Positions 1-29,859 of a DNA stretch of 64,000 nucleotides are shown in pieces; the stretch's first letter is position 1; the number at the start of each line of letters is the position of its first letter. The position numbers were made by a program, and so were the translations under genes. Origin of the DNA: an uncultured Gemmatimonadales bacterium (GTDB lineage: Bacteria; Gemmatimonadota; Gemmatimonadetes; Longimicrobiales; RSA9); NCBI GenBank assembly GCA_963741945.1, contig CAVUKA010000001.1, positions 160,001-224,000 of the forward strand. The letters run 5' to 3'. Under the pieces are notes generated by a model. It made no database searches. It worked only from the letters and a program-made list of their open reading frames with translations, and was not told where the DNA came from.

Positions 1-1664
1 CCGATCACCACCCGGCCGACGGTCAGGTGGAACGTCCCGGCCGTGAAGCCGGCGCTCATGATCCACTGCCAGGTGGTCACAGGCGATCCCGTCAGCCCCC
101 AGACGTCCAGGAGGATGAGCACGCCGACCAGAGCGAGCACGACCCGGCCGATCAGGATCAGCCGCTGCGCCAGCAGCACGCCCGCCCGGTGCAGCAGCGA
201 ACCCGTGGCGTCCAGGCGCTTGAACGTGGTGGAGGAAGCCCCCATCATGGCAAAGCCCAGCGTCACCGTGTACGCCACCGCACCGCTCATGACGGTCACG
301 TGCAGCGTCCACCGGGCCAGCGCGTCGAGTCCCAGGATCAAACAGGCCAGCACCACGACCCACACGGCCGCACCCATGAGAAGCGGCCACTTTCGAGCCG
401 GTTCACCGCCCCCCGCCCCGGGCTCCTCGCGCACCACCGGAAGCCGACGGAACGCCAGCAGCAGGAAGAGTGGGATGGCCATTGCGGCCACCAGGGCCAG
501 GCCCACGCGGAAGACCGGCTCGGGAAGCTGGCCCACTTCCAGGAGCAGGAACGCCGGGTAGAAGGCCGCGGCCAGGTAGATCATGAGGCGGACGGCCCGG
601 GCCTCGAAGAGGCGTCGGCCCAGGATCGCGGCGGTCGCCCCGAAGACGGCCCACAGCAGGACATCCCAGAGGGGCGGTGCCAGCGTGATACGGCCCATGG
701 CGGCCAGCGCGGAAACGAAAAGGCCCATGGCCCAGGGATGTTCGAGGAGCCCCGACCACTCGGTGGCCTCCGCCCGACCGGCCATCCGCCGGCCAAACCG
801 CACCGTCGCTCCGACGAGCAACGCCAGGAGCGCGTGGAACAACAGCATGCCCGCGTTGTCCCGTGCGAACGCCCGATACGCGTCCAGCTCGATGCCGGCA
901 GCGGGATCCCACGCGCGCCAACCTCCCTCGCGGAGCTGCGCCCGATGCTCAGCCGAGAAGAGAACCGGCTCCCCCCACGCGAGCAGGGCCTGCCGGCGCC
1001 GTGCCTGGATGGCGGTGATCGTGTCGCCCAGCTCGCGGATCCGCTCTCGCAGCGCCTCCACTCGACCCTGGAGCGCCATCGGGGCGGCCGCCGCGGCCGT
1101 CGCCGCCCGCAGCACCGAATCGATCCGATCGAGCGCGGCCCTCGCCTGCCCCGCCGACAGCGCCACCTCGGCCGCCGTCCCGTCGGCTTCCGCGCGCAAC
1201 GCCTCCAGCCGCGACCGCCACTGTTGCCGGCGGTCGGACCACTCCGCATCGAGGGCACCGAGCCGCTCCAGGCGGTCGACCAGGCGCCCACGGATGGTCT
1301 CGAGCCGCCCGTCCTCCAGCTGCGCCTGATCACGGAGTCGCGAAAGACGCTCCAGCCTCACGAAATCCGCGCTCGTCATGGCGTCGAACAGCGCCCGCAG
1401 CTCACCGTGGCGACGCTCCGCCGCTGCGACGTCCGCCGTCAGCTCCGCCATGGCCCCCAGGTTCAGGACCCTCTGCTCGGCCTGCGCCGCCGAGTCCGCC
1501 AGGACCTGAGCGCCGGCGGCGATCTGGAACGAGCTCGGTGGACCGGGCGCTTCCCCCTGCTCCTGGACCGCACTGCTCCCGGGGACCCCCTGCCCCAGCG
1601 CGGGAGCGGTCCCCAGCGCCGAGCCGATCAGGATCAGGACGGTTGTCCAGCCGGTTGATTTCAT
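1..1664 (-). CDS. Large MscS/MscK-like mechanosensitive channel protein (runs off the window edge)
   Basis: Not in the ORF track because it has no stop in the window. ATG at 1664 (MKSTGWTTVLILIGSALG, signal-like), then a helical periplasmic region and many TM helices, ending at the edge with LDVWGLT...GFTAGTFHLTVGRVVI, which typically precedes an MscS core. The 27..1658 + ORF is its antisense shadow. Confidence 0.6.
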   Translation of the reverse strand, partial: MKSTGWTTVLILIGSALGTAPALGQGVPGSSAVQEQGEAPGPPSSFQIAAGAQVLADSAAQAEQRVLNLGAMAELTADVAAAERRHGELRALFDAMTSADFVRLERLSRLRDQAQLEDGRLETIRGRLVDRLERLGALDAEWSDRRQQWRSRLEALRAEADGTAAEVALSAGQARAALDRIDSVLRAATAAAAAPMALQGRVEALRERIRELGDTITAIQARRRQALLAWGEPVLFSAEHRAQLREGGWRAWDPAAGIELDAYRAFARDNAGMLLFHALLALLVGATVRFGRRMAGRAEATEWSGLLEHPWAMGLFVSALAAMGRITLAPPLWDVLLWAVFGATAAILGRRLFEARAVRLMIYLAAAFYPAFLLLEVGQLPEPVFRVGLALVAAMAIPLFLLLAFRRLPVVREEPGAGGGEPARKWPLLMGAAVWVVVLACLILGLDALARWTLHVTVMSGAVAYTVTLGFAMMGASSTTFKRLDATGSLLHRAGVLLAQRLILIGRVVLALVGVLILLDVWGLTGSPVTTWQWIMSAGFTAGTFHLTVGRVVI

Positions 1665-15025: not shown

Positions 15026-15152
15026 GGGCGGCGCCCCGGGACGTGGGCGGATGCGCCGGCGCGATGAGTGGCAGCGGCATTGGCAACATCCGTTCCCTAC
15101 ACGCAGCGCGGAGCCGCAATGGGGGGCAGCCGGATCCGAGGGCGCTCGCGGC

Positions 15153-15434
15153 TCAGGGTTGACCGGATCGCGGACTGCTCAGCTCCTTCCTGAAGTCGCT
15201 CTCCTCTCGCAGGCGCCGGAGCTCGGACTCCGTTCCCTCCAGCTGGTTCTCCAGCAGCGACACCCTGGATTCGAGCGACGCCAGCCGACCCCCGGTCTCC
15301 GGCGTCTGCCGGACCAGCGCCAGAGACTCCACGATCGGTTTGAGCGCGAAGCGAGCGGTGATCCCCGCGACGGGGATGAGGATGACGAGCGTTCCCATGA
15401 TGACCGCGGCGAGCCCTACCCAGTCGATCGGCAT
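15153..15434 (-). CDS. Small single-TM coiled-coil protein
   Basis: GGGGAGG RBS; MPIDWVGLAAVIMGTLVILIPVAGITARFALKP followed by a heptad coil. Confidence 0.75.
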   Translation of the reverse strand: MPIDWVGLAAVIMGTLVILIPVAGITARFALKPIVESLALVRQTPETGGRLASLESRVSLLENQLEGTESELRRLREESDFRKELSSPRSGQP

Positions 15435-15541
15435 ATCGGTCCTCCCCCGTTCGGATTCGACACCGTGTGCGCGCTTCCGGCTGTACGGAGCGCCCGCGCC
15501 GCCGGTTTCGCAAGAGTCCGGAGCCGGCCGGTTCGGCCCGG

Positions 15542-16963
15542 CTATGGCAGCAGGGCGATCCCGCGCAGGAGCGAGAATGCCGGGCCGGCGGCGAGGCCGA
15601 GGGCGAGGGTGGCGAGCGCAGCGACGGCGAGGGTCCAGCGGGCCCAGGGACCGAGAACGGCCACGCGTGCGCCCGCCGCCGGGTCGTCGAAGTAGACGGG
15701 GGCGAGGACGCGCAGGTAGTAGAAGAGGGAAACCACGGTGTTCGCCACGGCCACGCCGGCGAGCCAGCCGTAGCCGGCGTCGATGGCGGCGCCGAACACC
15801 ACGAGCTTCCCGAAGAACCCCACGAGCGGGGGCACCCCCACCATGGACAGGAACGCCACGACGAGGGCGGCCGCGGCCCCCGGGCGAGCGGCGCCGAGGC
15901 CGTGGTAGTCGGCGAGGTTCGTGCGTCCCCGCAGGTGGGTGACCACGGCGAACGCCGCCATGGTAGCCATCCCGTAGCCGAGCAGGAAGAAGAGGAGCGC
16001 GGGGAGCGCGAGCGGCGTGCGTCCGAGCACCACCACGGCCACCAGCGCGTACCCGGACTGGGACACCGACGACCAGCCGATCAGCCGGCGCACGTCGGTC
16101 TGCCAGAGCGCGGCCAGGTTGCCGATGCTCATGGTCGCAACGGCCAGGGCGGCCACCAGCAGACGCCACGGCACCATCCCTTCCGGCACCAGCATCAGCA
16201 AACGGCCCAGCGCCACGAGCGCGCCGATCTTCGGCACCACGCCCAGGAACGCCGCCGATGGCGCGGGCGCCCCCTCCGCCACGTCCGGGAGCCATGCGTG
16301 GGCGGGGAACGCGGCCAGCTTGTATGCCAGTCCCACGGCGACGAAGCCGATGGCCACCAGCACGCCCCAGGAGGATGGGGGCGGTCGGCTGGCGAGCGCC
16401 GCCTGCGTCGCCGGGTAGCCGGTGTCGCCGACCAGGCCGAACAGCAGCACCACGCCCGTGGCCAGCAGCGCGTTGGCCAGGGCGCCGATGAGGAAGTACT
16501 TCATCCCCGCCTCGACGGAGAGCGGCCAGTCGCGGTGGTAGGCGGCGAGGGTGAAGCCGGTGACGGAGGAGAGGAGGACGGCAATGACCAGCTCCATGGT
16601 GTCGGCGGCGCCGGCCATGAGGATGGCGCCAAGGGCGGAGAGGAGGAGCACCCCATAGTACTCGCCGTGGCGGCGGTCCTCGCGCAGCCACTCCGGTGTG
16701 AGCCCCGCCGAGAGGGCCGTGAAGGCGAGGATGAGGAGCGATGCGGCCGCCGTGGCGCCGTCGAGCGCCCAGCTCCCGCGGAACGTGAGCCGCGGCGCTC
16801 CCGTTCCACGGGTGACGACGAACGCGGCCGCCGCTGCGAGCCCGGCGAGGGCGATGAGGGCGCCCCACCAGTGCCGCCGCTGCGCCACGAACGAAGCGGT
16901 CAGGACCGCGACAATGGCGGAGACCAGGAGCGCGATCTCGGGAAGGACGTCGCCGACCGGCAT
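15542..16963 (-). CDS. nuoN: NuoN-like antiporter subunit
   Basis: EAGMKYFLIGA, YKLAAFPAHAWLPDVAEGAP, VPKIG, GFFGKL. Confidence 0.88.
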   Translation of the reverse strand: MPVGDVLPEIALLVSAIVAVLTASFVAQRRHWWGALIALAGLAAAAAFVVTRGTGAPRLTFRGSWALDGATAAASLLILAFTALSAGLTPEWLREDRRHGEYYGVLLLSALGAILMAGAADTMELVIAVLLSSVTGFTLAAYHRDWPLSVEAGMKYFLIGALANALLATGVVLLFGLVGDTGYPATQAALASRPPPSSWGVLVAIGFVAVGLAYKLAAFPAHAWLPDVAEGAPAPSAAFLGVVPKIGALVALGRLLMLVPEGMVPWRLLVAALAVATMSIGNLAALWQTDVRRLIGWSSVSQSGYALVAVVVLGRTPLALPALLFFLLGYGMATMAAFAVVTHLRGRTNLADYHGLGAARPGAAAALVVAFLSMVGVPPLVGFFGKLVVFGAAIDAGYGWLAGVAVANTVVSLFYYLRVLAPVYFDDPAAGARVAVLGPWARWTLAVAALATLALGLAAGPAFSLLRGIALLP

Positions 16964-18445
16964 TCAGCGCCCCACCACCAGGAACCCGGCGGTGCTCTCG
17001 ACGAGCGTGAGGAGGAAGCGCGGGTAGACCCCGATGGCGATCACCGCGGCCAGCAGCACTCCGAGCACCGCGCGCTCCGAGCGCGACAGGTCCGGGAATG
17101 CCGCCCATCGCTCGGGCAGCTCGCCGGTGAAGAGGTCGCGCAGCATGAGCAGGAAGAGGGCGGCCGTGACCAGCACGCCGACCAGGGCCAGCCCGGCGAG
17201 CCAGGGGAAGACGCCGAACGTGCCGATGAAGATCTGGATCTCGGCCACGAAGCCGGCCAGGCCGGGGAGGCCGAGGCTGGCGAAGGCGGCCACGACGGCG
17301 GCGACGGCGAGCACGGGGGCCGGACCGGCCAGCCCGCCGAACGCGCCGAGGTCGTACTCCTTCGCCCGCTGCCAGAACGACCCCGCGATGAGGAAGAGGG
17401 ATCCCGTGATGAGCCCGTGCGCCACCATCTCCACTGTGGCCCCGGTGAGCGCGAGCCGGCGCGCTCCTTCGGCGCCGTGGAGCGCCCCGCCCGCGGCCGC
17501 GATCCCCAGAACGGCATAGCCCATGTGATTGACCGACGTGTAGGCGATCCGCCGCTTCAGGTCGCGCTGCGCCAGGGCGACGAGGGCGCCATAGAGGATC
17601 GAGACCAGCGCGATGACGCCGATGACGAACGCGTAACGGTGGAAGGTCTCGCGCATCATGGAATACGGGATCCGGATCAGCCCGTACGTCCCCATCTTGA
17701 GCAGTACGCCTGCCAGGATCGCGGAGCCCGGGCCTGGCGCATCCACGTGCGCAGGGGGCAGCCAGGTGTGGACGGGGACCACGGGCGTCTTCACGCCCAG
17801 CCCGATGCCGAAGCCGAGGAGCGCGAGGCCGGCCAGGCCGCTGCCGGCCAGCGGCTGCTGCGCGATGATGGCGCGCATGTCGAAGGTGCGGGGGTCCGTC
17901 GCCAGGTACAGGGCGAGGATCGCCAGCAGCATCGTGAGTGACCCGGCCAGCGTGTAGAGGAAGAACTTGAGGGCGGCGCGGCGGGCGTCGCCGTGGCCCC
18001 ACCGGCCGATGAGGAAGAACATCCCCACCAGGCTCAGGTCGAAGAAGACGTAGAAGAGCAGCAGGTCCAGCGCGAGGAACACGCCCAGCGAGACGGACTC
18101 GAGGAACAGGAGCCAGGCGTAGTACTGGCGCGGCCGCCCCTTCGTGTCCACCGGATAGGCCGTGGCGCCGGAAAAGAGGAGGGCGCTCATGGTGGCGACC
18201 GCGAGGGCGATTCCGTCGACACCGAGGCGATAGCCGACGCCGAGCGAAGGGACCCACGGCACGTCCACCACGAGCTGGAACTGTGGTCCGGCCGTGTCGA
18301 AGCGGAGCCACGCCCCCACGAGCAGGAGGAAGGGGACCGCCGCGGCGACCATGGCAAAGCGCCGCGCCGCGGCTTCGCTCCAGCCAGGCCGGAGCGCCAG
18401 CGCGAGGGCGGAAAGGAGCGGCACCACGAGTGTCGCCGTCAGCAT
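16964..18445 (-). CDS. nuoM: NuoM-like antiporter subunit
   Basis: LGVDGI, VKTPVVPVHTWLPPAHVDAP, LAGVLLKMGTYG, AYTSVNHMG, GFVAE. Confidence 0.9.
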   Translation of the reverse strand: MLTATLVVPLLSALALALRPGWSEAAARRFAMVAAAVPFLLLVGAWLRFDTAGPQFQLVVDVPWVPSLGVGYRLGVDGIALAVATMSALLFSGATAYPVDTKGRPRQYYAWLLFLESVSLGVFLALDLLLFYVFFDLSLVGMFFLIGRWGHGDARRAALKFFLYTLAGSLTMLLAILALYLATDPRTFDMRAIIAQQPLAGSGLAGLALLGFGIGLGVKTPVVPVHTWLPPAHVDAPGPGSAILAGVLLKMGTYGLIRIPYSMMRETFHRYAFVIGVIALVSILYGALVALAQRDLKRRIAYTSVNHMGYAVLGIAAAGGALHGAEGARRLALTGATVEMVAHGLITGSLFLIAGSFWQRAKEYDLGAFGGLAGPAPVLAVAAVVAAFASLGLPGLAGFVAEIQIFIGTFGVFPWLAGLALVGVLVTAALFLLMLRDLFTGELPERWAAFPDLSRSERAVLGVLLAAVIAIGVYPRFLLTLVESTAGFLVVGR

Positions 18446-18449
18446 CGGT

Positions 18450-20393
18450 TCAGCCTCCCAGGATCAACAGGACGAGAAGGATGCCCAGCCCCACCATGAT
18501 GAGGCGGTAATACTGGTGGGCGAGCCCCGTCTGGAGCCGCCGGGCCCACGAGCCCGCGCGGCCCACCAGCCGGGACAGGCCCTCCGGAGCGCCGTCGATG
18601 AGGACTTCCGCCCCCCGCTTCCCGGCCACGGCCAGCCGGGCCGCGGCATCGGCCGCCCACCACACCGTTCCATCCACGACGGCATCATCGAACCGGGCGA
18701 GCAGGCGAGCGCTGTCCCGCGCCACGCCGGGCAGCAGCCACACCGCCCGGTCCAGCACGCCATCATCGAAGCGCGCGAGCAGGTCGGCACACCGCTGAGC
18801 GGGCCGCGCGATGACGAGCCGGGCCAGCGCGGGGAGCCCGAGCCAGTCGGCGGCCGGCGCAGCACCGGCCTCCCCCAGCCGCGGCCGGAAACGCGCAACC
18901 GCCCAGCCGATCGCCACTCCGACCGTGACCAGGAGCAGTGAAGCCGCGAGCTCCCACGCCTCGCTCGACGGCACGATCCCCGCCAGCGCCTCCGCGACTC
19001 GCTGCGCCACGGGCGCGGCCCAGAGCAGCGAGAGCAGTGCGGTGGCGGCCGCGAGCAGGTAGAGCGCCCCGCGTTCTGCCGTGCGCGGCGGGCGGCCGCT
19101 CTCCCCCTCCCCGCACCCCGCTCCGCCGCGGCCGAACGCCTGGAACCAGAAGCGGGCCATGTAGGCGGCCGAAAGTCCACCGGCGATGCTCACGGCCACC
19201 GCCAGCCACGGGGAAGCGTGCCCGGCCGCGGTCACCACCTCCTCCTTCGTCCAGGCGGCTCCGAGGGGGGGCACACCGGCCAGCGCGGCCGCGGGGAGCG
19301 CGGAGGCAATGGCCACCCCGGGCAGCGCGCGCCCCAGCTTCATCCCGGGCAGGCGATAGCTGCCCGTGCAGCCGTGAGCGACTCCCGAGGCGAGGAAGAG
19401 CGGCGCCTTCGCCAGTGCGTGGGCGACGAGGTGGAGCACCGCCACGGCGGGATACCCGGCGCCCACGGCTACGAACATCAGGCCGTAATGGGCGGAGGTG
19501 GAGCCGGCCAGAAGTCGCTTGGCATGGGGCTGGAGGAGGGCGACGAGCCCGCCCGCCAGTGCCGTGGTCACGCCCACCGCCATGGCCGCCGGCCCGAACC
19601 AGGCCACACCGCCGAGCACCGGCTCCAGTCGGATAAGCAGGAACGCCCCGGCGGCCACCATGGTGGCCGCGTGGAGCAGCGTGGAGACGGTCACCGGCCC
19701 TTCCATGGCCGCGAACAGCCACGGCGCAAACGGCAGCTGCGCCGACTTCGCCGCGGCCGCGGCCAGCAGCCCCGCCGCTACCAGGTGGAGCGGCAGCCCG
19801 GTAAGGCCGGGCAGCGCCCCGTAGCGCAGCGAACCCGCACCGGCGAACGCAGCGACCACGGCCAGGAACATCCCCAGGTCGCCCGCGCGCGTGGTGAGGA
19901 AGACCACCGCCCCCGCCCTCGCCTTCCCGCGCTCCCACCACCCGTGGGCCACCAGCAGCGCCGAGCAGGCGCCGATCACTTCCCAGCCGACCACCAGCGT
20001 GAGCAGGTCCGCCGCCCCCGCAACCAGCTCCATGGCCCCCGCGAAGAACGTGAGCAGCACCAGCAGACGCCGCAGTCCTCGCGCCTCCTCGTGGTAGGCC
20101 GCGTACGCCACCACCGGGGCGGCGACCAGCGGTACCAGGACGGCGAAGATCGGCACCACCGGCGAGGTCCCATAGGCGTAATCCAGCGACAGGCCCAAGT
20201 CGGCCGCCCACAGAAGCCGACCGGTCCAGCCATGGACGCCCGCCAGCCCGGCCAGTGCGGCGGTGGCGACCATGGTTCCCGTGCTCAGCACGGCCAGCGG
20301 CGCTCGCCCACCCCTCCCATCTCCACGGGCGAGCCCCGTCAGCCCCAGCAGCAGGGCGCCGAAGACCGGAAGCAGGGGAACCAGCCAGGCCAT
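18450..20393 (-). CDS. nuoL: NuoL-like antiporter subunit
   Basis: GWEVIG, AKSAQLPFAPWLFAAMEGP..VSTLLHAATMVAAG, HALAKAPLF, WTKE, long lateral helix ending RLQTG. Confidence 0.88.
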   Translation of the reverse strand: MAWLVPLLPVFGALLLGLTGLARGDGRGGRAPLAVLSTGTMVATAALAGLAGVHGWTGRLLWAADLGLSLDYAYGTSPVVPIFAVLVPLVAAPVVAYAAYHEEARGLRRLLVLLTFFAGAMELVAGAADLLTLVVGWEVIGACSALLVAHGWWERGKARAGAVVFLTTRAGDLGMFLAVVAAFAGAGSLRYGALPGLTGLPLHLVAAGLLAAAAAKSAQLPFAPWLFAAMEGPVTVSTLLHAATMVAAGAFLLIRLEPVLGGVAWFGPAAMAVGVTTALAGGLVALLQPHAKRLLAGSTSAHYGLMFVAVGAGYPAVAVLHLVAHALAKAPLFLASGVAHGCTGSYRLPGMKLGRALPGVAIASALPAAALAGVPPLGAAWTKEEVVTAAGHASPWLAVAVSIAGGLSAAYMARFWFQAFGRGGAGCGEGESGRPPRTAERGALYLLAAATALLSLLWAAPVAQRVAEALAGIVPSSEAWELAASLLLVTVGVAIGWAVARFRPRLGEAGAAPAADWLGLPALARLVIARPAQRCADLLARFDDGVLDRAVWLLPGVARDSARLLARFDDAVVDGTVWWAADAAARLAVAGKRGAEVLIDGAPEGLSRLVGRAGSWARRLQTGLAHQYYRLIMVGLGILLVLLILGG

Positions 20394-20397
20394 CGCG

Positions 20398-20703
20398 TCA
20401 GCCTTCCAGGGTGTCCAGCCCCTCGGTGGTGTCGGCCTGACGGTTCCGGTAGACCGCCACCACCAGCGCGAACCCCATCGCCATCTCCACTGCCATGATC
20501 GCCATGATGACGATCGCCAGCAGCTGTCCCCGGGGCGCGAAGCCCGACGCCATGGCCCAGAACGCCACGGTCGCCAGGATCAGCCCGTTCAGGATCAGCT
20601 CCAGCCCCATCATCAGCATCACGAACGACTGCTGCGAAAGCGCGCCGTACACGCCGATCCCCACCAGCACGGCCGCAACCACCAGGAGCGCCGGCAACGT
20701 CAT
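20398..20703 (-). CDS. nuoK: NuoK-like subunit
   Basis: 101 aa, three TM helices, MGLELILNG and AVEMAMGFALVVAVYR keep both conserved Glu. Confidence 0.88.
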   Translation of the reverse strand: MTLPALLVVAAVLVGIGVYGALSQQSFVMLMMGLELILNGLILATVAFWAMASGFAPRGQLLAIVIMAIMAVEMAMGFALVVAVYRNRQADTTEGLDTLEG

Positions 20704-21266
20704 GGCCGCCTCCCTGTCGGCTCGCCGCCAGGCTCCAGCCCGGGCGGGCGCGATCCCACGTCGGCGGGGCCGTAACGGCCGCGTCGGCTGGAGAGGATGA
20801 CAGTGCCGATCATGGCGGCGAGGAGCGTGACGCCGGCGGACTCGAAAACGAGCATGGAGCTGCCGAGGAGCTCGACGCCCAGGGCGGCGATCGGGTCGGC
20901 GGGCGGCGTCGAGCCCGCCCGGTGGAACGGAACGCCCAGCCCGACCGCCGCGAGGATGCCGCCCACGCCGACAGCGGCGGCCAGGGCGGTCGCGGGCTGG
21001 TGGACCATGTTCATCGGGTTGAGCCCGGCCGGGTTCATCATGAACATGACCATGAACAGGGCCATGACCATCATCTCGACGGCCATCATGAAGATGAGTG
21101 CGAAGCCGAGGTAGGGCGCGGCCAGGAGCAGGAGGATGGCGGCGACGGCCACGAACGACGTGAGCAGGTAGAAGGAGGCGCGAACCATGGAATCGGTGCG
21201 GAACACCCGCCAGCCGGTGACGATGGCGAGCGCGGCGAAAGCCCAGAACAGCGCGTCGATCGCCAT
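20700..21266 (-). CDS. nuoJ: NuoJ-like subunit, Met-rich
   Basis: MAIDALFWAF...; FESAGVTLLAAMIGTVIL matches the last NuoJ TM; TGATG overlap with nuoH. Confidence 0.8.
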   Translation of the reverse strand: MAIDALFWAFAALAIVTGWRVFRTDSMVRASFYLLTSFVAVAAILLLLAAPYLGFALIFMMAVEMMVMALFMVMFMMNPAGLNPMNMVHQPATALAAAVGVGGILAAVGLGVPFHRAGSTPPADPIAALGVELLGSSMLVFESAGVTLLAAMIGTVILSSRRGRYGPADVGSRPPGLEPGGEPTGRRP

Positions 21267-22198
21267 CAGAACAGGGCCACGAGGCCGGCTTCCAGGAGCC
21301 CCAGGAACGAAAGCGGGAGCAGGCCCAGCCAGACCAGGGAGACCACGCGCTCCGTGGCGATGCGGGCCGTGCTCCTGCCGAGGAAGGCGAGCAGCGTCAG
21401 GACGGCCAGCGTCTTGACGGCGAGCCAGACCGGTCCCGGAAGCCACGGCCCCAGCCACCCACCCAGGAACACCGTGGCCGCCACGGCGGAGAACGCCACG
21501 AGCATCGCGCGCCGGGCGAACTCCCAGACGAGCCTCGAAATGCCCGAGACCTCGGATGACGCCCCGCCCGCCAGGTCCGCGCTGTCGGCGAAATCGAGCG
21601 GTCCCCAGAAGGCGACGCCGAGCCCGACGAAGAGGAAGAGCGGCAGTCCGAGGGGCTGTCGGACCACGTTCCACACCCCGTGCTGGGACTCGACGATCGC
21701 CGACAGCCTCAGCGATTCCGCCGGGAGCGCGGCCGCGATGAGGACGAACATGCTCACCAGCATGTAGGTCAGCCCGAGGGCGACGTAGCGGTATCCGCCG
21801 ATCAGCGACAGGTGCGCGTTCGCGGCCCAGCCGTGAAGGAAGATGACCACCACCGCCAGTGCCTCGACGGAGCCCCAGAGCACGATCCCGGCGGCGACAT
21901 CCGCCGGCGCCAGCGCGCTCGACCATGGCACTGCCGCCAGCCCCACCACCGCCAGCGCCAGGTAGAGCGAAGGCGCCAGCATCCAGGCGGGCGCGTCGGG
22001 CCGCTCGGTCCGGTTCCGCTGCTGCACCAGCAGGAAGGCCGCCTCCCGGAGCGGAGCCAGGAGAACCGGCCCCGACGAGCGACCGGCCACGGCCGCCGCG
22101 GCGAGCCGGTCCAGGATGGCAAAGCCCCACACGCCGGCCAGTGCGGCGGCGGCGAGCACCCCCACGGTCGTAGCCGTCCCCGCCGTGGCCGGAATCAT
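21266..22198 (-). CDS. nuoH: NuoH-like subunit (divergent)
   Basis: GWAANAHLSLIGGYR, SLRLSAIVESQ.GVWNVVRQPLG, TVFLGGWLGP, VKTL; ATGA overlap with the upstream gene. Confidence 0.82.
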   Translation of the reverse strand: MIPATAGTATTVGVLAAAALAGVWGFAILDRLAAAAVAGRSSGPVLLAPLREAAFLLVQQRNRTERPDAPAWMLAPSLYLALAVVGLAAVPWSSALAPADVAAGIVLWGSVEALAVVVIFLHGWAANAHLSLIGGYRYVALGLTYMLVSMFVLIAAALPAESLRLSAIVESQHGVWNVVRQPLGLPLFLFVGLGVAFWGPLDFADSADLAGGASSEVSGISRLVWEFARRAMLVAFSAVAATVFLGGWLGPWLPGPVWLAVKTLAVLTLLAFLGRSTARIATERVVSLVWLGLLPLSFLGLLEAGLVALF

Positions 22199-23301
22199 GC
22201 CCCGCCTTCCGCTGTGGGAGTCAGGTCGGCGGCCACCACCACCAGGCACGCCTCGCTCCACTCGAGGCCGGGCAGGTGCTCCGCCAGCCACGCGGCCGCA
22301 TCCGCATGGCCGCCGGCCACCGCGTTGTCGAACGCCGCCGGATCGCCGGCCGCCGTGGACAGGAGGCCATGCAGGTGCGAGCGGACCGTGCCGCCCCCGG
22401 GCAGGGGCACGGCCGGGAGCGCGGGCAGCGTGGCGCCGAAGCGCACCAGCGACTGGAGCCGGCGCACGCGGGACGCGGTGAGGTCGGGGGCGAGCGCGGC
22501 CGTGAGCGCGCGGTCGGCCAGGGCGTGCGCGCCCGCCATGTCCAGGATCCAGGCCGCGCGACGCAGGCGGACGCGCGCCCCGGCCACGTCCACGTCCGCG
22601 CGGCGAGCGGAAGCGCGGCCCCCACCATCGCTTACGGCCGAAACGGCCCGGGGGTACGGTGGCTCCAGGAGCTCCGCCTCCTGCACCACGTCGCCCTGGA
22701 GCACGAGCCGGAGCACGAGTCCGGGGGGGAACGACGGAAAGAAGGGACCGATGGTGAAGGAGAGCTGATCGAGGGCGAGACCATCGCGGATGTCGTCGGC
22801 CGTCATGGCCATCGGGCGACCGTACGGCTTCCCCCCCATCATCCCTTCCCCGCCCTGCCCGTGATCGCCGAGTCCGCGCCACGGGTTCGGCGGGCGGTCC
22901 GGCAGCCACGCCGGCTCGGACGCTCGATCCCCGCGCAGCACTGCGCTGTGGAGCCCCCGCAGCGCGGGGAGCGGATCGTCGTCACCGGGGACCACCTGGC
23001 CGCTGGCGACCGACGCGCCCCCGCCGTGAAGATCCGGCTGTGGCGCGTCATCGCCCCAGTACAGCGTGGCCCGGGGGTGCGGGATCTGGTCGTGGACGCG
23101 GGCGAGCGCGGCCCCGAATCGTGACGGCACCCAGCCCGCCACCATCAGGATCGTCGCATGCCGTGGCGATCGGACGAGCCGCAGGTCGCGCCGGAGCGAA
23201 AGCGCCTCCACCCGGTCCCCTGCCCCCTCGCCGATGGCCGGGAAGATGGGCACCGGGGCGGCCGCTGCCATGGCCCCAAGCCAGCGGCGCAGCGCGCTCA
23301 C
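22195..23301 (-). CDS. Compact NuoB/NuoD-like fusion protein lacking Fe-S ligands
   Basis: SPRHATILMVAG...ALARVHDQIPHPR and VVPGDDD are NuoB-like; IGPFFPSFPPGLVLRLVLQGDVV and LPGLEWSEACLVVVAADL are NuoD-like; GTG start overlaps the nuoA stop. Confidence 0.72.
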   Translation of the reverse strand: MSALRRWLGAMAAAAPVPIFPAIGEGAGDRVEALSLRRDLRLVRSPRHATILMVAGWVPSRFGAALARVHDQIPHPRATLYWGDDAPQPDLHGGGASVASGQVVPGDDDPLPALRGLHSAVLRGDRASEPAWLPDRPPNPWRGLGDHGQGGEGMMGGKPYGRPMAMTADDIRDGLALDQLSFTIGPFFPSFPPGLVLRLVLQGDVVQEAELLEPPYPRAVSAVSDGGGRASARRADVDVAGARVRLRRAAWILDMAGAHALADRALTAALAPDLTASRVRRLQSLVRFGATLPALPAVPLPGGGTVRSHLHGLLSTAAGDPAAFDNAVAGGHADAAAWLAEHLPGLEWSEACLVVVAADLTPTAEGGA

Positions 23302-23678
23302 TGCCACCGGAAGATCCCTTCGCGCCAGCCGTAGACAATGCCGACCGAGAGGATCGTGAGGAACATCCCCATCTCGACGAGCGCCTTGATCCCCTCGCGG
23401 ACGTAGACCACGGCCCACGGATACATGAACATCATCTCCATCTCGAACGCGATGAAGAGCAGGGTCATGGAGTAGAACCGCACGTGGTAGCGGCTCCACG
23501 CGTGCGTCGCCGGCTCACCACCGCCGAGGAACGGCGCCTTCTGCGGCCCGGTCAGCGCACGCCGGTCGGCGCGGGTCAGCCCCAGCTGCACGGCAAGCGC
23601 AAAAGCGGCCGCCGTCCCGAACACGATGAGCAGGTTGAGGAGCATGCGCATTTGATTCCGTTTGCGCGCCGCAAGCAT
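23298..23678 (-). CDS. nuoA: NuoA-like subunit (start may be 23651 or 23645)
   Basis: PFLGG...YHVRFYSMTLLFIAFEMEMMFMYPWAV...YGWREGIFRW; GGAGG RBS. Confidence 0.85.
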   Translation of the reverse strand: MLAARKRNQMRMLLNLLIVFGTAAAFALAVQLGLTRADRRALTGPQKAPFLGGGEPATHAWSRYHVRFYSMTLLFIAFEMEMMFMYPWAVVYVREGIKALVEMGMFLTILSVGIVYGWREGIFRWQ

Positions 23679-23821
23679 TGTTCCTCCCTGCACGAGGGCT
23701 TTGCACCGCCTGGCAACCGCCTCGGTGGCGCTGCTGGCGCGCGCGGGCGCCGGTTGCCGACTAGCCCGCCCACGCCGCCGTCGCACTGGTCCCGCCCCGG
23801 CCGGCGCGCTACGCTGTAGCC

Positions 23822-25057
23822 ATGGCACAACCGAACGTGCTGGCGATCGTCCTCGCCGGAGGCGAGGGGAAGCGGCTGCAGCCGCTCACGCGGGACCGGA
23901 CCAAGCCGGCGGTCCCGTTCGGCGGAGACTACCGGCTCATCGATTTCGCCCTCTCGAACCTGGCCAACGCCGGCTTCCTGCACATTGTCGTGCTGACGCA
24001 GTACAAGAGCCACAGCCTGGACGTGCACCTGGGGAAGGCGTGGCGCATGTCGCCGATCCTGGGCAACTACGTCATCTCCGTGCCCGCCCAGATGCGGACG
24101 GGGCCGCAGTGGTTCGCGGGCTCCGCCGACGCCATCTACCAGAACCTGAACCTGATCGGCGACGAGCGGCCGGAGCACGTCATCGTCTTCGGCGCGGACC
24201 ACATCTACCGCATGGACCCGCGCCAGATGCTGGACGAGCACGTGGAAAGCGGCGCCGGCGTGACCGTGGCCGGGATCCGGGTCCCCCGCTCCCTGGCCAG
24301 CCAGTTCGGCATCATCGAGCCTTCCGCCGACCGCCGGCGCATCGAGCGCTTCCGGGAGAAGCCGCCCGAGGCCGAGGGGCTCCCCGACGCGCCGGACCAG
24401 GTCTTCGCCTCCATGGGCAACTACCTCTTCCGCACGGACACGCTCGTGGAGATGGTCACCCGTGACGCCGAGGACCCGGACTCCCGGCACGACATCGGCG
24501 GCGACATCATCCCCCGGCTCGTGGACGCGGCCGACGCCCACGTCTACGACTTCGCCGACAACGACGTCCCCGGCGCCACCGACCGCGACCGCGGCTACTG
24601 GCGCGACGTGGGGACGCTGGAAGCGTACTACGACGCCCAGATGGACCTGGTCTCCGTCGATCCCATCTTCAATCTCTACAACCGGCAGTGGCCGATCCTC
24701 ACCGCGCGGGACCCCGCTCCGCCGGCCAAGTTCGTCTTCGCCTCCCACGGCCGCACCGGCCACGCCCTGGACTCCATGATCTCCGCGGGCGTGGTCATCT
24801 CCGGCGGCGAGGTGCGCCGCTCCGTGCTCTCCCCCGGCGTCTACGTGCACAGCTACGCCAGCGTCGAGGACTCGGTCCTCATGCACAACGTGGACGTGGG
24901 CCGCCACGCCATCGTCCGGAATGCCATCATCGACAAGAACGTGCGCATCCCAAGGGGCGCCCGCATCGGGGTGGATCCGGAAGTGGACGCCGCCCGGTTC
25001 CATGTCACGGAGCGTGGCATTGTCGTCATCGGCAAGGGCCAGACGGTGGCGCCGTGA
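23822..25057 (+). CDS. glgC: Glucose-1-phosphate adenylyltransferase
   Basis: [42 protein letters not shown]. Confidence 0.96.
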
Positions 25058-26250
25058 AAGTGGCGCTCTGCACACGGGAGTACCCGCCGGACGTCTACGG
25101 CGGCGCGGGAGTCCACGTGGAGCACATGGCCCGCGCCCTGGCCGACCTCGCCGACGTGGCGGTCCACTGCTTCGGCCCGCCCCGGCCCGACCCGCTGGTG
25201 GCCGCCACCTACCAGCCGTGGGACGCGCTGGATGGCGGGGCCCCGCACCTGGCCGCGCTGCGCACGTTCTCCGTGGACCTCTCCATGGCCGCGGGCGTCC
25301 GTGGCGCGGACGTGGTGCACACGCACACGTGGTACGCCAACCTGGCCGGCCACCTGGCGAAGCTCACGTACGGCACCCCGCACGTCATGACCAGCCACAG
25401 CCTGGAGCCGCTCCGGCCGTGGAAGGAGGAGCAGCTGGGCGGCGGCTACCGCCTCTCCCTCTGGGCCGAGCGCACGGCCGTGGAAGCCGCCGACGCGGTC
25501 ATCGCCGTCTCACGGGGCATGCGCGACGACATCCTCCGCTGCTACCCCGCCGTGGCGCCGGAGCGCGTGCACGTCATCCACAACGGCGTGGATGCCGACG
25601 TGTACCGGCCGGATGCCGGCCGTGACGCGCTGGCGCCCCTCGGCATCGATCCAGACCGGCCCACCACCGCCTTCGTGGGACGGATCACCCGCCAGAAAGG
25701 CCTGCCGCACCTGCTGGACGCCGCGGAGCTGCTCGTGGAAGGGAGTCAGCTGGTCCTCTGCGCCGGGGCGCCGGACACCGAAGAGATCGGCCGCGAGGTG
25801 GCCGCGCGGGTGGACGCGCTCCGCTCGGCCGGGCGCCTCTCCGTCGTCTGGATCCCGGAAATGCTGCCGCCGCAGCAGGTGACCCAGGTCCTGGCCGCCT
25901 CCACGGTCTTCGTCTGCCCGTCCATCTACGAGCCGTTCGGGATCGTGAACCTGGAGGCCATGGCGTGCGGCACACCCGTCGTCGCTTCCGCCGTGGGCGG
26001 GATCCCCGAGATCGTGCTGGATTCGGAGACGGGGTGGCTCGTCCCGTTCGAGCAGGGCGACGATGCCTTCGGCTCACCGGCCGACCCCCCGGCGTTCGCC
26101 CGTGACCTGGCAGCCCGGATCAACGCGCTCCTCGAAGACCCGGAAGCAGCCGCGGCCATGGGCCGGGCAGCACGGGAGCGGGCACTGGCCGACTTCGGCT
26201 GGCCGGCCATCGCCGAGCGGGTCCTCACCCTCTACCGCTCGCTGATCTGA
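25054..26250 (+). CDS. glgA: GT4 glycogen synthase / alpha-maltose-1-phosphate synthase (actinobacterial GlgA/GlgM type)
   Basis: [59 protein letters not shown] overlap with glgC. Confidence 0.9.
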
Positions 26251-26668: not shown

Positions 26669-29600
26669 ATGACCAGGAGTCACTGGCGTACGGCTCTGTT
26701 CGCCATGCTCGCGTTCCCGGCGGCGCTGTTTGCGCAGGACCGGGGCTCGATCGCGGGTGTGGTGACGGCCGAGGACACGAATGAGCCCCTGCAGGGGGTT
26801 CAGATCCAGCTGAAGGGAACGGGTCAGGGAACACTGACCAACCAGACGGGTGGGTTCCTGTTGACGAACGTCCCCGTGGGCGAGCAGACGCTGCAGTTCA
26901 CGTCCATCGGGTATGCGACGGTGTCGCGGACGGTGACGGTGGAGTCCGGCGCCACGTCGACGGTGCGTGTGTCGATGGCGACGGACGTGCTGGGCCTGGA
27001 CGAGATCGTGGTGGTCGGGTACGGGAAGGAGAAGCGGCGGAACGTGACGGGGGCGATCTCGAGCGTGTCGCCATCGGAGATCTCCGAGCAGATCCCGGCG
27101 CCGAACGTGGAGAACGTGCTGCAGGGCCGTGTGGCGGGGGTGCAGGTGGTGCAGAACTCGGGCAGCCCGGGTTCGGCCATGACGATCCGGGTGCGCGGCA
27201 CGGCATCGATCACGGCGGGCAACCAGCCGCTGTACGTGGTGGACGGCGTGCCGATGATCCAGGGCAACTTCTCGACGCTGGACAACCTGTACGGCGGTCA
27301 GGGGATCGATGCGCTGGCGGATCTGAACCCGAACGAGATCGAATCGGTGGAGGTCCTGAAGGATGCGTCGGCGGCGGCGATCTACGGGTCGCGCGCGTCG
27401 AACGGTGTGGTGCTGATCACCACGAAGAAGGGCGTGGTGGCGGACCGTCCGAAAGTGCAGTACAGCGCGTACTACGGGCAGCAGGAGGCCTGGCGGATCC
27501 CGGGCTTCACGAACGCCGTGCAGTACATGGACGTGACGAACGAGGGGTACGCCGCGTACGTGCAGCAGGCGTACGGCATGACGATCCCGGACTTCTTCGA
27601 CTGGGGTTATGGCGTTCCCGGGATCGACGCCTACATGAGCTACGACAACGACAACGTCAACAGCTGGTACGAGATCCCGGCGGGGACGGATACCGACTGG
27701 CTGCGTGCCATGCTGCAGACGGCGCCGGTATCGAACATGTCCGGCTCCATCGCGGGTGGTAACGAGAAGGCGCGCTACTACATCTCCGGGACCTGGTTCA
27801 ACCAGGACGGGATCGTCCAGGGGTTCGGGTACAACCGGGTGAACGGCCGGATCAACCTGGACTACAGCGTGACGGACGCGGTCACGCTGGGGACCAACGT
27901 GGCGCTGACGCACGCGGTGACGGACCGGATGGCGAGCGACAACACCATTTACGGCCCGTTCTCCAACGCCATCGCCAACGCGCCCATCGATCCGATCTAC
28001 GCGAATCCGGAGAAGACGGAGTTCAACTACAACACGTCGTACGCGAACCCGGTGGCGCTTGCGAACAAGAACTCCGCGGAAGAGCGCAACGTCCGAATCC
28101 TGGGCAACGCGTTCGCCGACTGGAACTTCATGCAGGGGCTGGACGCGAAGGTGAGCGTGGGGCTGGACCATTACGCGCTGCGCTCGCGCTCCTACGACTC
28201 GCCGGAGGTGGGTCCTGCCACGGGCTCGAACGGCCAGGCGTACGCGGGCAACTCCTTCGCCAGCAAGCTGGTGACGGAAGCCACGGTGAACTGGATCCGT
28301 GACCTGGCGGAGAACCACAGCTTCTCCGGCGTCGTCGGGACATCGTACGAGCAGAACACCACGGAGACGGACTGGGTGACGGGGACGAACTTCCCGTCCA
28401 GCGCGTTCCGCTATCTCACGTCGGCGGCGAGCATCACGGGCGGCAGCTCGAGCCTCACCGACTGGTACCTGCTCTCCTTCTTCGGCCGCGCGTCGTACAC
28501 GTTCGCGGACCGGCTGACGGCCACGTTCAACATCCGGACGGACGGCTCCTCGCGCTTCGGCGCGAACAACCGCTATGGCGTGTTCCCTTCGGGCTCGCTG
28601 CTGTGGCGCGTGACGGACGAGCCGTTCATGGGGGACCAGACGCTGCTGAGCAACCTGGCGCTGCGCGTGAGCTACGGGCGCACGGGGAACCAGCAGGGGA
28701 TCGGCAACTTCGCGTCTTGGGGGCTGGTGGGCACCGGCTACAACTACGAGGACACGCCGGGGACGGCGCCGGCGCAGCTGGCGAACCCGGACCTGAGCTG
28801 GGAGAAGACCACACAGTTCAACGTGGGCGGCGATGTCGCCTTCCTGAACGGGCGGCTGGGCTTCAGCGCCGATTACTACATCAAGAACACGACGGACCTG
28901 CTGCTGGACCGGCCGATCCCGTATTCCACGGGCTTCGCGCTGATCACGCAGAACATCGGTGCGGTGAACAACAAGGGCGTGGAGCTGACGGCCACGGCCA
29001 AGCTGGCGCAGGGACCCGCGCGCGGCTTCAACTGGACGGCCGAGATGAACGTGAGCGCCAACCGCAACGAGGTGACGGCGCTGTACGGAGACAACCCGCT
29101 CAACTACGGCTTCGTCAGCCGCGTCGAGGTGGGGCAGCCGCTGGGCGTGTTCTACGGCTACGTCACCGACGGTCTGTTCCAGGCCGATGCCGAGGCGTGC
29201 CACGACCCCACGGGCGCGACGTGCGCCGGGACGGGGACGGGGTACCAGAGCTACTACACCACCGCCGGCGACATCCGCTTCAAGGACCTGAACGGTGATG
29301 GTTTGATCACGTCCGAGGACCGGGCCGTGATCGGCTCGCCGTGGCCCGACTTCCAGGGCGGCTTCACCAACACAATGTCGTTCGGGGGCTTCGACCTGAA
29401 CGCCTTCTTCCAGTTCTCGAAGGGGAACGACATCTACAACGCCACCCGGATCTACACCGACCAGTTCGGTGGGTACTGGGACAACAACTCGGATCGCGCG
29501 CTGGACCGGTGGACGCCGGAGCACACGGACACGAATCAGCCCCGGGCGATCTGGTACGACCTGCCCAACAACGCGCGGGACTCCGACCGGTTCGTGGAGG

Positions 29601-29848: not shown

Positions 29849-29859
29849 GGAGAAGGCAT

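Follow-up and report, generated by a model that had tools for sequence, protein, structure and literature searches.

We describe here a protein, X, in which a NuoB-like and a NuoD-like domain are fused and from which the ligands of the redox chemistry of complex I appear to have been lost. Its gene takes the second place among the eight of an operon, nuoA-X-nuoH-J-K-L-M-N, located in the analysed window, a stretch of 64,000 nucleotides from an uncultured Gemmatimonadales bacterium. We hold it quite possible, though short of probable, that X caps, on the cytoplasmic side, a pmf-driven cation transporter derived from complex I, with Cu(I) (or Ag(I)) as the favoured cation.

The X frame (23301..22195, minus strand) encodes 368 aa followed by a stop codon, with no internal stop. 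It starts with a GTG that shares the sequence GTGA with the stop codon of the nuoA-like gene upstream, and the N-termini of homologues align with that of X as read from this GTG. An earlier sequence-only reading of this DNA had proposed that the protein is a NuoB-NuoD fusion, and the strings it quoted (SPRHATILMVAG, ALARVHDQIPHPRATLYWGDD, VVPGDDD, GDHGQGGEGMMGGKPYGRPMAM and GPFFPSFPPGLVLRLVLQGDVV) are all found in the X translation; it left the minus strand of the gene unstated. The open frame of the nuoA-like gene extends up to 23828, and tblastn matches in related loci mostly start near residue 44-64 of this long ORF. The set of seven membrane subunits, NuoA/H/J/K/L/M/N, is complete, follows the nuo order and matches the respective families:

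23298..23678, minus strand: nuoA-like gene (NuoA2), 126 aa from the ATG at 23678; PF00507, E 5.3e-24
22195..23301, minus strand: X, apparently cofactor-less NuoB-NuoD fusion, 368 aa; stop-free translation
22918..23301, minus strand: NuoB-like flavodoxin-fold domain of X, residues 1-128; VIA, Foldseek and profile matches
22771..22899, minus strand: inter-domain loop of X, residues ~135-177, PPNPWRGLGDHGQGGEGMMGGKPYGRPMAMTADDIRDGLAL; family conservation
22204..22800, minus strand: predicted reduced NuoD-like domain of X, residues ~168-366; VIA structure match
21266..22201, minus strand: nuoH-like gene (NuoH2), 311 aa; PF00146, E 8.5e-40, 137 bits
20700..21266, minus strand: nuoJ-like gene (NuoJ2), 188 aa; PF00499, E 4.8e-19
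20398..20703, minus strand: nuoK-like gene (NuoK2), 101 aa; PF00420, E 2.4e-16
18450..20393, minus strand: nuoL-like gene (NuoL2), 647 aa; PF00361, E 7.6e-42
16964..18445, minus strand: nuoM-like gene (NuoM2), 493 aa; TIGR01972, 470 bits (cut-off 263.8)
15542..16963, minus strand: nuoN-like gene (NuoN2), 473 aa; TIGR01770, 319 bits (cut-off 332.6)

A small ORF after nuoN (15153-15545) was unmatched in the 80 nearest loci, and a promoter and terminator scan of 14900-24100 returned no promoter-like site and one terminator-like site, on the wrong strand.

The likeness of X to NuoB and NuoD exceeds chance. The profile of the X family matched NDUFS7/NuoB chains with an E-value of 4.8e-10 and the NuoB of its own genome with 5.9e-7 (hhalign, probability 92%, 43 columns), and the SPRxA...VAG...DQxPxPR block of NuoB is retained in these profile alignments. 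NuoD chains were matched with E-values from 3.4e-7 to 1e-4 and the NuoD of the same genome with 1.5e-5, the latter match lying within a segment that is deleted from the short form present in the window. The scores of X against established families are low: 16.4 bits for PF01058 (Pfam cut-off 27), 24.6 bits for TIGR01957 (NCBIfam cut-off 142.7) and no match to PF00346 at E ≤ 0.1. Long-form relatives retain a PF00346-matching insert that the window protein does not have, and most of them score above the 24-bit Pfam cut-off, but the long forms stay below the NCBIfam cut-offs.

In an AF2 monomer model of X (pLDDT 86.1, pTM 0.87), residues 1-128 superpose on NuoB/NDUFS7 (VIA Z 12.3, rmsd 2.4, 121 residues; Foldseek E 1.6e-4, TMt 0.58) and residues 168-366 on the NuoD chain 8qby_D (VIA Z 11.5, rmsd 4.0), with a further match of the second half to HycE (Z 11.2). 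This structural similarity to both NuoB and NuoD, together with the profile E-values, bears out the fusion. The NuoD-like half consists of the N-terminal beta-sheet, a helical bundle and the C-terminus, the middle of NuoD being deleted; as modelled, it is a reduced, about half-size NuoD/[NiFe]-large-subunit fold. Since the alignment spans chain 3..412 of 8qby_D end to end with only 190 of ~410 residues aligned, the sequence-only reading was also right that most of the NuoD core is missing.

The only cysteine of X, C352 of 368 aa, is located in the NuoD-like half, near the C-terminus as had been noticed, and is not conserved in the family. Among 79 X sequences 14 are free of cysteine, a single alignment column reaches 10% cysteine or more (16/79), and no cysteine is conserved anywhere, which agrees with the reported loss of all N2 cysteines. 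RATLYWGD occupies the position of the canonical SMGS/SMGA in the hhalign alignment with the genome's own NuoB, and VVPGDDD corresponds to the fourth-Cys motif, a residue match that is based on secondary-structure order and aligned range only. The quinone-site histidines, likewise described as lost, are replaced, going by motif and strand order: GPFFPSFPPGL takes the place of the NIGPQHP stretch of the own-genome NuoD, and the family consensus there, GPFxPxLPPGL, has no histidine. Judged from the alignments, X has no residue able to ligate cluster N2 and has lost the quinone-site His. NuoC/E/F/G/I or any other peripheral-arm gene is absent from the operon in 80/80 loci. With no conserved cysteine, the histidine replaced and these subunits missing, the view that X is not an electron-transfer module is well supported.

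Binding of a redox-active or other organic ligand would be conceivable even in the absence of cysteines: a remnant pocket of X could accept a quinone, for instance, and the complex could act as a sensor of the quinone pool or react with it. X has kept the N-terminal sheet and the helical bundle of NuoD that surround the quinone site, and NuoH has kept its overall fold, but the replacement of the Q-site His, the deletion of about half of NuoD and the lack of an electron donor module in the operon make such a role very unlikely.

The two halves of X are joined by a loop that is more than the linker described by the sequence-only reading: residues 141-180 are the best-conserved stretch of the whole protein (conservation 0.77-0.88). 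In the 79-sequence alignment G143, G145, G150, G151, M154, G156 and G157 are invariant, as are P159, G161, R162, R172, D173, L175 and L177, and the segment is rich in conserved Trp, His, Met and Gly residues. Its pLDDT in the monomer model is 49-61, which is consistent with a segment that may become ordered on a partner. A putative role of X as a structural cap fits its homology and gene position, and the earlier denial of electron transfer stands; the accompanying description as a plug or ligand sensor undersells this loop and leaves aside the methionine relining of NuoA/J/K and the metal genes next to related loci, which are described below.

The antiporter-like subunits seem to be in working order. 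The TM5 Glu, TM7 Lys, His and TM12 Lys of NdhF have aligned counterparts in NuoL2; NuoM2 keeps the TM7 Lys, TM8 Lys and TM12 Glu, with Asp replacing the TM5 Glu; and NuoN2 keeps the TM7, TM8 and TM12 Lys and has Leu at the TM5 Glu position. We read the proton channels of NuoL2, NuoM2 and NuoN2, which keep channel Lys/Glu residues, as probably functional.

The subunits that would line the interface with the cap are rewritten, and the rewriting is conserved in the family. NuoH2 scores 137 bits against PF00146 versus 393 for the canonical copy; it keeps the overall NuoH fold, has an altered E-channel Glu, and the 23-residue TM5-6 loop of the E. coli protein is replaced by RGPFNYADSxDLAGGTxxExSG. 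In NuoA2 the TM1-2 loop and TM3 are changed, the canonical FIVFDLETIFLIPWGV becoming FIAFEMEMMFMYPWAV, and AFEMEMMFMYPWAVV is a family-invariant motif. TM3 of NuoJ2 is Met-rich and carries a new Glu and a 9-residue insertion (15 Met in the 188 residues of NuoJ2 versus 6 in the 171 of canonical NuoJ), while NuoK2 retains both TM Glu residues and has gained conserved Met residues. The rewritten parts of NuoH, NuoA, NuoJ and NuoK are those that build the quinone chamber and the E-channel in complex I, and many of the new residues are methionines. This Met enrichment is possibly structural, which would count against a copper reading.

The nuoA gene lies immediately upstream of X in 80/80 loci and the complete A-X-H-J-K-L-M-N order is found in 69/80, contig ends cutting 10 of the other 11; one locus, L078, has nuoA and X only, despite a 10 kb downstream flank. 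X is conserved on a par with the membrane subunits and always occupies the NuoB/NuoD gene position. No gene in the flanks is common to all 80 loci. Relatives of X are encoded in 354 species genomes, and the long forms make up at least 1274 clusters, with soil Actinobacteria, Chloroflexi and Gemmatimonadales records among them. Across phyla, module NuoH proteins share 52-65% identity versus 41-47% for canonical NuoH, in 25/25 genome pairs, and in the NuoH tree the window copy nests among gammaproteobacterial halophiles (support 97/94). The tree and the cross-phylum identities indicate that the module spread horizontally. A decaying, non-functional duplicate of complex I would account for the lost cofactor ligands and subunits and for the truncated copy at L078; the wide distribution of X, motifs that are invariant across phyla, intact and translationally coupled frames and a cross-phylum identity above that of canonical NuoH speak against it. 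These conservation data already contradict decay, and we give it the least credence of the readings considered here.

A complete canonical nuoA-N operon is located elsewhere in the same genome, and a canonical complex I accompanies the module in 35/36 module genomes, so that cross-talk between the two is possible. The operon might be a spare membrane arm that borrows the canonical NuoB-G and NuoI, X helping in assembly as a chaperone or holding the place until it is displaced. We consider this very improbable: the 4.5-Mb genome G027 contains the module with no PF01058 match, no canonical PF00346 match and a NuoH of the module type only, that is, without canonical NuoB, NuoD or NuoH; NuoH2 is only 28% identical to the canonical NuoH of its own genome and the Q-site loops are rewritten; and X, as conserved as the membrane subunits, never leaves the NuoB/NuoD position.

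The genes that surround the module point to metals. Copper or heavy-metal resistance genes are found in the flanks of 37/80 loci (copper-type in 34/80; the examined flanks of 43/80 have none), counts that are phylogenetically non-independent, as 8 of the loci, for example, are from Salinisphaera. Control 20-kb regions beside canonical nuo operons had metal genes in 0/16 cases, whereas 10/15 module loci of the same genomes were positive (Fisher p 7e-5), 2 of these 10 positives being self-hits, as some search seeds came from counted loci. In Salinisphaera, CopA and CopB genes end ~70 nt upstream of the module on the same strand; in Halomonadaceae a CusA/CzcA gene (TIGR00914, 1271 bits) is directly upstream; a RicR/CsoR-type repressor precedes the module in Sphingomonas, Stakelama and Consotaella; and in 4 loci a small Csp-like ORF precedes nuoA by 100-300 nt. 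CopB is found within 10 kb of the module for 7/25 copies in 27 genomes versus ~0.2 expected, and overall module relatives adjoin copAB, cusA/czcA, cusF, csoR-type and Csp-like genes far above chance.

Evidence against copper comes from the window itself: its operon has no copper gene nearby, the flanks containing glgC, a glycosyltransferase, a TonB receptor and an acetate transporter, and no CopB was found in the genome to which it belongs. The downstream TonB receptor was considered as a copper-specific one and rejected, its best match being a sub-threshold PqqU. No HMA/HMBD domain was detected by Pfam in the window X nor in 20/20 long relatives scanned; an ESM-Atlas neighbour cluster combines HMBD with PF00346, and at its score of 0.77 this link is a lead only.

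Met, His and Trp are soft-metal ligands. As such residues are conserved in the module and metal genes adjoin its relatives, we favour Cu(I)/Ag(I) as the transported cation, a choice that stays tentative. Taken together, the conservation of the X loop, the methionine relining and the metal-gene context point to the loop as the site where a working transporter would take in and handle its ion. X would be seated on NuoH/NuoA at the position of the Q-module, and proton inflow through NuoL/M/N would drive conformational changes by which a cation that enters at the loop of X might be passed through the former quinone chamber and the E-channel to the periplasm. In the more specific version, complex I would have been rebuilt as a proton-powered Cu(I)/Ag(I) exporter on mobile metal-resistance islands, which we regard as possible but slightly more doubtful than the cap role itself. 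The Trp/His/Met/Gly loop of the cap would capture cytoplasmic Cu(I) and hand it to the former quinone chamber, from which it would enter a methionine-lined E-channel formed by NuoH/A/J/K, the three intact antiporter-like subunits providing the driving force. We know of no case in the complex I superfamily in which a mechanism or substrate of Cu(I)/Ag(I) transport has been shown.

The same machine could instead move Na+ (or K+), as a complex-I-derived, Mrp-like Na+/H+ antiporter for high salt or alkaline pH, in which X would do no more than close and shape the NuoH cavity at its cytoplasmic mouth. Most of the 80 nearest loci come from halophilic or marine genera (by record titles, 30 Halomonadaceae and 7 Salinisphaera; Fulvimarina, Caenispirillum salinarum and Fodinicurvata halophila are further carriers) and Na_H_Exchanger genes adjoin 5 of them, both of which fit sodium. 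The antiporter-like subunits are intact and the genome of the window has neither MrpE nor any MrpA/D-like gene. On the other hand, MrpE is present in 31/36 module genomes, and a role of the module as an Mrp replacement was rejected on this ground; the long-form relatives include organisms from soil; and sodium leaves the conserved Met/His/Trp loop, the Met relining and the copper-island context unexplained. We consider sodium unlikely, although it remains the most serious competitor of copper.

A marine connection has also been drawn in the literature. A partial nuoAHJKLMN operon ("NDH-1 partial 2") of Salinispora, marine Streptomyces and Kocuria is proposed as a set of "marine adaptation genes" gained from marine bacteria and is linked to growth on seawater media (PMC3314556, PMC6676996, PMC8622039), which favours the sodium reading. 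The horizontal acquisition proposed there is also seen in our NuoH tree. Its order is given as nuoA, an unnamed ORF and then nuoH-J-K-L-M-N (PMC6676996), and in Supplementary Table 2 of PMC3314556 Stro0767 is skipped between nuoA (Stro0766) and nuoH (Stro0768). For the ORF after nuoA these papers use the label hypothetical protein, "with no homologs in UniProt or PDB", and the one factor they discuss is salt. The partial operon (Penn and Jensen, 2012; Almeida et al., 2019) and our module share the gene order, and both occur in addition to a complete nuo operon. The actinobacterial ORF is likened to X by gene order alone, and no Salinispora or Streptomyces names occur among the X-relative matches listed. 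A search of the literature outside subscription journals found neither a published Cys-less NuoB/D fusion nor a copper link, and the metal-gene association of the module is new here.

Compared with complex I (NDH-1), both halves of X share the folds of NuoB (NDUFS7/PSST) and NuoD (NDUFS2/49 kDa), the X gene is placed between nuoA and nuoH, and its partners are orthologous to NuoA/H/J/K/L/M/N. Unlike complex I, X has no N2 cysteines and no Q-site His, misses about half of NuoD, contains a new conserved fusion loop and scores under the Pfam/NCBIfam cut-offs, and the module does not include NuoC, E, F, G or I. Mrp (Mnh/Pha) antiporters resemble the module in being redox-free, with antiporter-like PF00361 subunits and NuoK/NuoJ-like small subunits, and in being pmf-driven cation exporters, the function we suggest for the module; they differ in having MrpB/E/F/G and in having no NuoH, NuoA or cytoplasmic cap, whereas the module lacks every Mrp-specific gene and contains both NuoH and NuoA. 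Systems of the CusA/CusF type handle Cu(I)/Ag(I) through methionine relays and His/Met/Trp sites. The module is similar in its conserved Met clusters within a putatively pmf-driven membrane protein and in the Trp/His/Met-rich predicted capture loop, and it adjoins cusA/czcA, cusF and copAB genes, but its proteins are not homologous to those with RND or CusF folds. Ehr complexes also belong to the complex I/group-4 hydrogenase superfamily, have a catalytic subunit devoid of metal ligands and no assigned function, and are classed as hydrogenase subtypes (PMC4758237); in the module, L, M and N are each orthologues of complex I subunits and the NuoB cluster is lost as well.

With X, the ORF listed as a "hypothetical protein" in the much-cited "marine adaptation" operon would gain an identity. 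The module is a natural relative of complex I that has proton machinery and the architecture of the Q-site and no redox chemistry. How the mechanics of the NuoH/NuoA/NuoD loops and of the E-channel contribute to coupling in complex I is an open question, and the module offers a ready system in which the mechanical role of these elements can be addressed. If the copper reading is true, the module would form a new class of inner-membrane metal exporters powered by the pmf, and the travel of the operon with copAB/cus islands would be explained.

The NuoB-NuoD fusion X (368 amino acid residues) is the second gene of a minus-strand operon of eight genes, hereafter the module, whose subunits carry the suffix 2. 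The sequence-only reading had placed X correctly at 22195..23301, leaving its strand, minus, unstated. The operon is composed of:

23678..23298, minus strand, nuoA-like
23301..22195, minus strand, X, 368 amino acid residues
22201..21266, minus strand, nuoH-like
21266..20700, minus strand, nuoJ-like
20703..20398, minus strand, nuoK-like
20393..18450, minus strand, nuoL-like
18445..16964, minus strand, nuoM-like
16963..15542, minus strand, nuoN-like

The operon in the window contains no nuoC, D, E, F, G or I. The GTG start of X overlaps the TGA of the upstream nuoA-like gene as GTGA and, from this start, its N-terminus aligns with those of its homologues; an identical copy in the sequence collection was called from M11, giving 358 residues. 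All strings quoted in the sequence-only reading are present in the translation, in which C352 is, as claimed there, the only cysteine. Directly after nuoN we noticed a 130-residue ORF (15153-15545, minus strand), predicted to form a single membrane helix and to end in a coiled coil. No Pfam or NCBIfam model matches it and none of the 80 related loci has a counterpart; it is probably lineage-specific or outside the module.

As a single sequence, X matches NuoB models below threshold (PF01058, 16.4 bits, cut-off 27; TIGR01957, 24.6 bits, cut-off 142.7) and has no NuoD match in the Pfam and NCBIfam scans. A 79-sequence X-family profile matched NDUFS7/NuoB chains (E 4.8e-10) and NuoD chains (E 3.4e-7 to 1e-4), as well as the canonical, i.e., ordinary complex I, NuoB (E 5.9e-7) and NuoD (E 1.5e-5) of the same genome; the NuoD match corresponds to an insert kept in the long forms of the family (~430-445 residues, PF00346-positive) and deleted in the short form of the window. 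The AF2 model of X is confident (pLDDT 86.1, pTM 0.87) and retrieved only NuoB-type chains at the top of a Foldseek search (19 matches at E<=1e-3; best 6zr2_B, E 1.6e-4, TMt 0.58). In a second, Foldseek-independent structure search, residues 1-128 matched NuoB (Z 12.3, rmsd 2.4 over 121 residues) and residues 168-366 matched NuoD (Z 11.5, rmsd 4.0 over 190 aligned residues, spanning chain residues 3-412), followed by HycE (Z 11.2) and the large subunits of [NiFe]-hydrogenases (Z ~8).

No conserved cysteine column exists in the 79-member X family, 14 members of which are Cys-free, and X presents GPFFPSFPPG where the canonical NuoD of the same genome reads NIGPQHP. Cluster N2 and the canonical quinone-histidine site are therefore absent, which confirms the loss of ligands noted earlier, and the view that X is not an electron-transfer module stands. 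The "linker" between the domains, whose Met/His conservation had been put forward for checking in homologues, proved to be the best-conserved stretch of the family, with a maximum at residues 141-180 (0.77-0.88). Invariant residues in the 79 sequences include G143, G145, G150, G151, M154, G156, G157, P159, G161, R162, R172 and D173, while W141, H147, M155, M164 and M166 are present in most; the "linker" is the core of the family. The same loop is the lowest-confidence part of the monomer model (pLDDT 49-61), and high conservation together with low pLDDT is a pattern typical of a segment that may become ordered on a partner.

An exhaustive search retrieved 648 representatives at E<=1e-3, 171 of them at E<=1e-30, with X relatives encoded in 354 species genomes; with a long-form query, at least 1274 clusters were obtained at E<=1e-20. 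All 80 of the best loci have nuoA immediately upstream of X, and the complete A-X-H-J-K-L-M-N order is observed in 69; 10 of the 11 incomplete loci are interrupted by contig ends, and the last, L078, is a truncated remnant consisting of nuoA and X, followed downstream by 10 kb of unrelated DNA. L078 comes from a MAG that also contains a full copy (L075), in which the nuoJ, L and M matches are broken into pieces, and both are examples of module decay. In the published passages dealing with it, the operon is treated as a partial nuoAHJKLMN "marine adaptation" cluster (PMC3314556; PMC8622039); Supplementary Table 2 of the former gives Stro0766 as nuoA and Stro0768 as nuoH, with Stro0767 unlisted. 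A "Nuo-Partial" class is distinguished in an HMM survey of Nuo clusters from 2025, whose relevant passages contain no description of the X module (PMC12361115). Ehr complexes, hydrogenase relatives without Ni-Fe ligands as presented in a passage citing them (PMC4758237), are the nearest published concept. Our literature search found nothing published on a NuoB/D fusion lacking Cys, nor on a connection with copper.

The proton-channel residues of the module are intact. NuoM2, above the NuoM family cut-off, retains TM7 Lys, TM8 Lys and TM12 Glu, with Asp replacing TM5 Glu; NuoL2 retains TM5 Glu, TM7 Lys, His and TM12 Lys; and NuoN2 retains the three Lys, its TM5 Glu being replaced by Leu. The former quinone chamber and E-channel are rewritten and rich in Met. 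NuoH2 has a rewritten but conserved TM5-6 loop, Met/Leu in place of one E-channel Glu (SYEV in E. coli) and a degenerate N-terminal LLQPLAD-type stretch. Rewriting also affects the TM1-2 loop and TM3 of NuoA2 (FIVFDLETIFLIPWGV to FIAFEMEMMFMYPWAV); TM3 of NuoJ2 has gained a Glu, an insert of 9 residues and many Met, and NuoK2 has gained Met as well. All of these changes are conserved across 43-75 family sequences, and Met counts in module versus own canonical subunits are 10/126 versus 6/127 (NuoA), 15/188 versus 6/171 (NuoJ) and 9/101 versus 5/97 (NuoK).

Outside the window, its genome (4.09 Mb, 8 contigs) carries all 14 genes of a canonical nuoA-N operon (contig 8, 73198-88144), with normally Cys-rich NuoB, E, F, G and I; the module subunits share only 26-38% identity with their canonical counterparts. 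Of 36 module genomes, 35 encode canonical NuoD (the window's own, 5/5 and 29/30). The exception, genome G027 (locus L082, 4.5 Mb), has no PF01058 match and NuoH of the module type only, indicating that the module can occur where no peripheral arm is available for borrowing. A role as Mrp replacement is ruled out by the presence of MrpE in 31 of the 36 module genomes; neither MrpE nor an MrpA/D-like gene was found in the window's genome. In the Consotaella genome G020 (loci L049 and L115), three more genes resemble nuoH but form an intermediate class by score (176-198 bits); together with several PF00346 matches that are split, they probably represent hydrogenase-4 or formate-hydrogenlyase-type complexes.

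NuoH scores in 26 genomes separate canonical (375-438 bits) from module (106-156 bits) copies, a split obtained at 100/100 in an IQ-TREE analysis of 53 NuoH sequences. Across phyla, the module NuoH of the window shares 52-65% identity with its counterparts, versus 41-47% for the canonical NuoH in the same genome pairs (module higher in 25/25), and it groups with Halomonadaceae, Bowmanella and Saccharospirillum at 97/94, the canonical copy being placed elsewhere. Identities and tree agree with the horizontal acquisition proposed for the actinobacterial partial nuo operon (PMC3314556).

The module is associated with metal-resistance islands. When flank ORFs were clustered, a family of multicopper oxidases was found at 14 of the 53 loci with full flanks, representing at least five lineages; flank genes were then typed by Pfam and NCBIfam scans. 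In Salinisphaera, genes for a CopA-type oxidase and CopB share the strand of nuoA and end ~70 nt upstream of it; CopAB flank the module in Rhodanobacter and Fulvimonas, in a Sphingomonas MAG (with a RicR/CsoR-type repressor, directly upstream) and in Halomonas (with a cupredoxin and a two-component pair); other Halomonadaceae have a CusA/CzcA RND pump directly upstream (TIGR00914, 1271 bits), and the Fulvimarina flank contains OEP, MCO, cupredoxin, CusF, MCO and cytochrome c. DUF411, Csp-like (DUF326), CDF, MerA and transposase genes were also found. In four Halomonadaceae loci (L016, L022, L036 and L084), a small Cys-rich DUF326/Csp-like (copper-storage-type) ORF lies directly before nuoA (~100-300 nt upstream, same strand) and may represent, for this lineage, a ninth gene of the operon.

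With seed proteins from module loci (tblastn, E<1e-8, >=40% coverage), metal-type genes were found in the flanks of 37 of 80 loci and copper-type genes in 34 (29 and 26, respectively, of the 53 full-flank loci). CopB lies within 10 kb of the module for 7 of 25 copies in 27 genomes, versus ~0.2 expected; counted among these neighbours is Salinisphaera G003, with two module copies (L048 and one on contig C9) and CopB within ~2.5 kb of each. Within the same set of genomes, seed matches occurred at 10 of 15 module loci, two positive loci being seeds matching themselves, and in none of 16 control regions of 20 kb adjoining canonical nuo operons (Fisher p 7e-5). The lineages behind these metal-context counts are not independent. 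In many loci the immediate neighbours are unrelated housekeeping genes. No copper gene was found near the module in the window, and no CopB in its genome. Other genes of the window include:

4562-5896, minus strand, Nramp metal transporter, flanking the operon
9586-11232, plus strand, trehalose-phosphatase/HAD fusion, flanking the operon
23822-26247, plus strand, glgC and GT4 glycosyltransferase, flanking the operon
26669-31197, plus strand, SusC/RagA-type TonB-linked receptor (1059 residues), then a SusD-like gene, from ORF translations only, in a genome of ~70% GC
47255-52790, minus strand, three-gene RND efflux set (AcrB-type pump, HlyD-type adaptor, outer-membrane factor), 25 kb from the module

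The flanking trehalose and glycogen genes could be related to osmotic stress.

The description of X as a cap or plug is probably too passive. X may cap NuoH/NuoA within a complex that would act as a pmf-driven cation exporter, and the X loop would be where cations are captured or gated on the cytoplasmic side. We favour Cu(I)/Ag(I) as the exported cation, on the basis of the gene context and because soft metals are bound by Met, His and Trp. Na+ comes second, in line with the halophile bias of the relatives, the literature on the partial nuo operon and the Na+/H+ exchanger genes neighbouring loci. X is a redox-dead NuoB-NuoD fusion, and the operon to which it belongs is conserved and mobile and encodes an entire membrane arm of the complex I type. 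No Pfam or NCBIfam model covers its family, and among members of the complex I superfamily X stands as a new variant, as yet uncurated.
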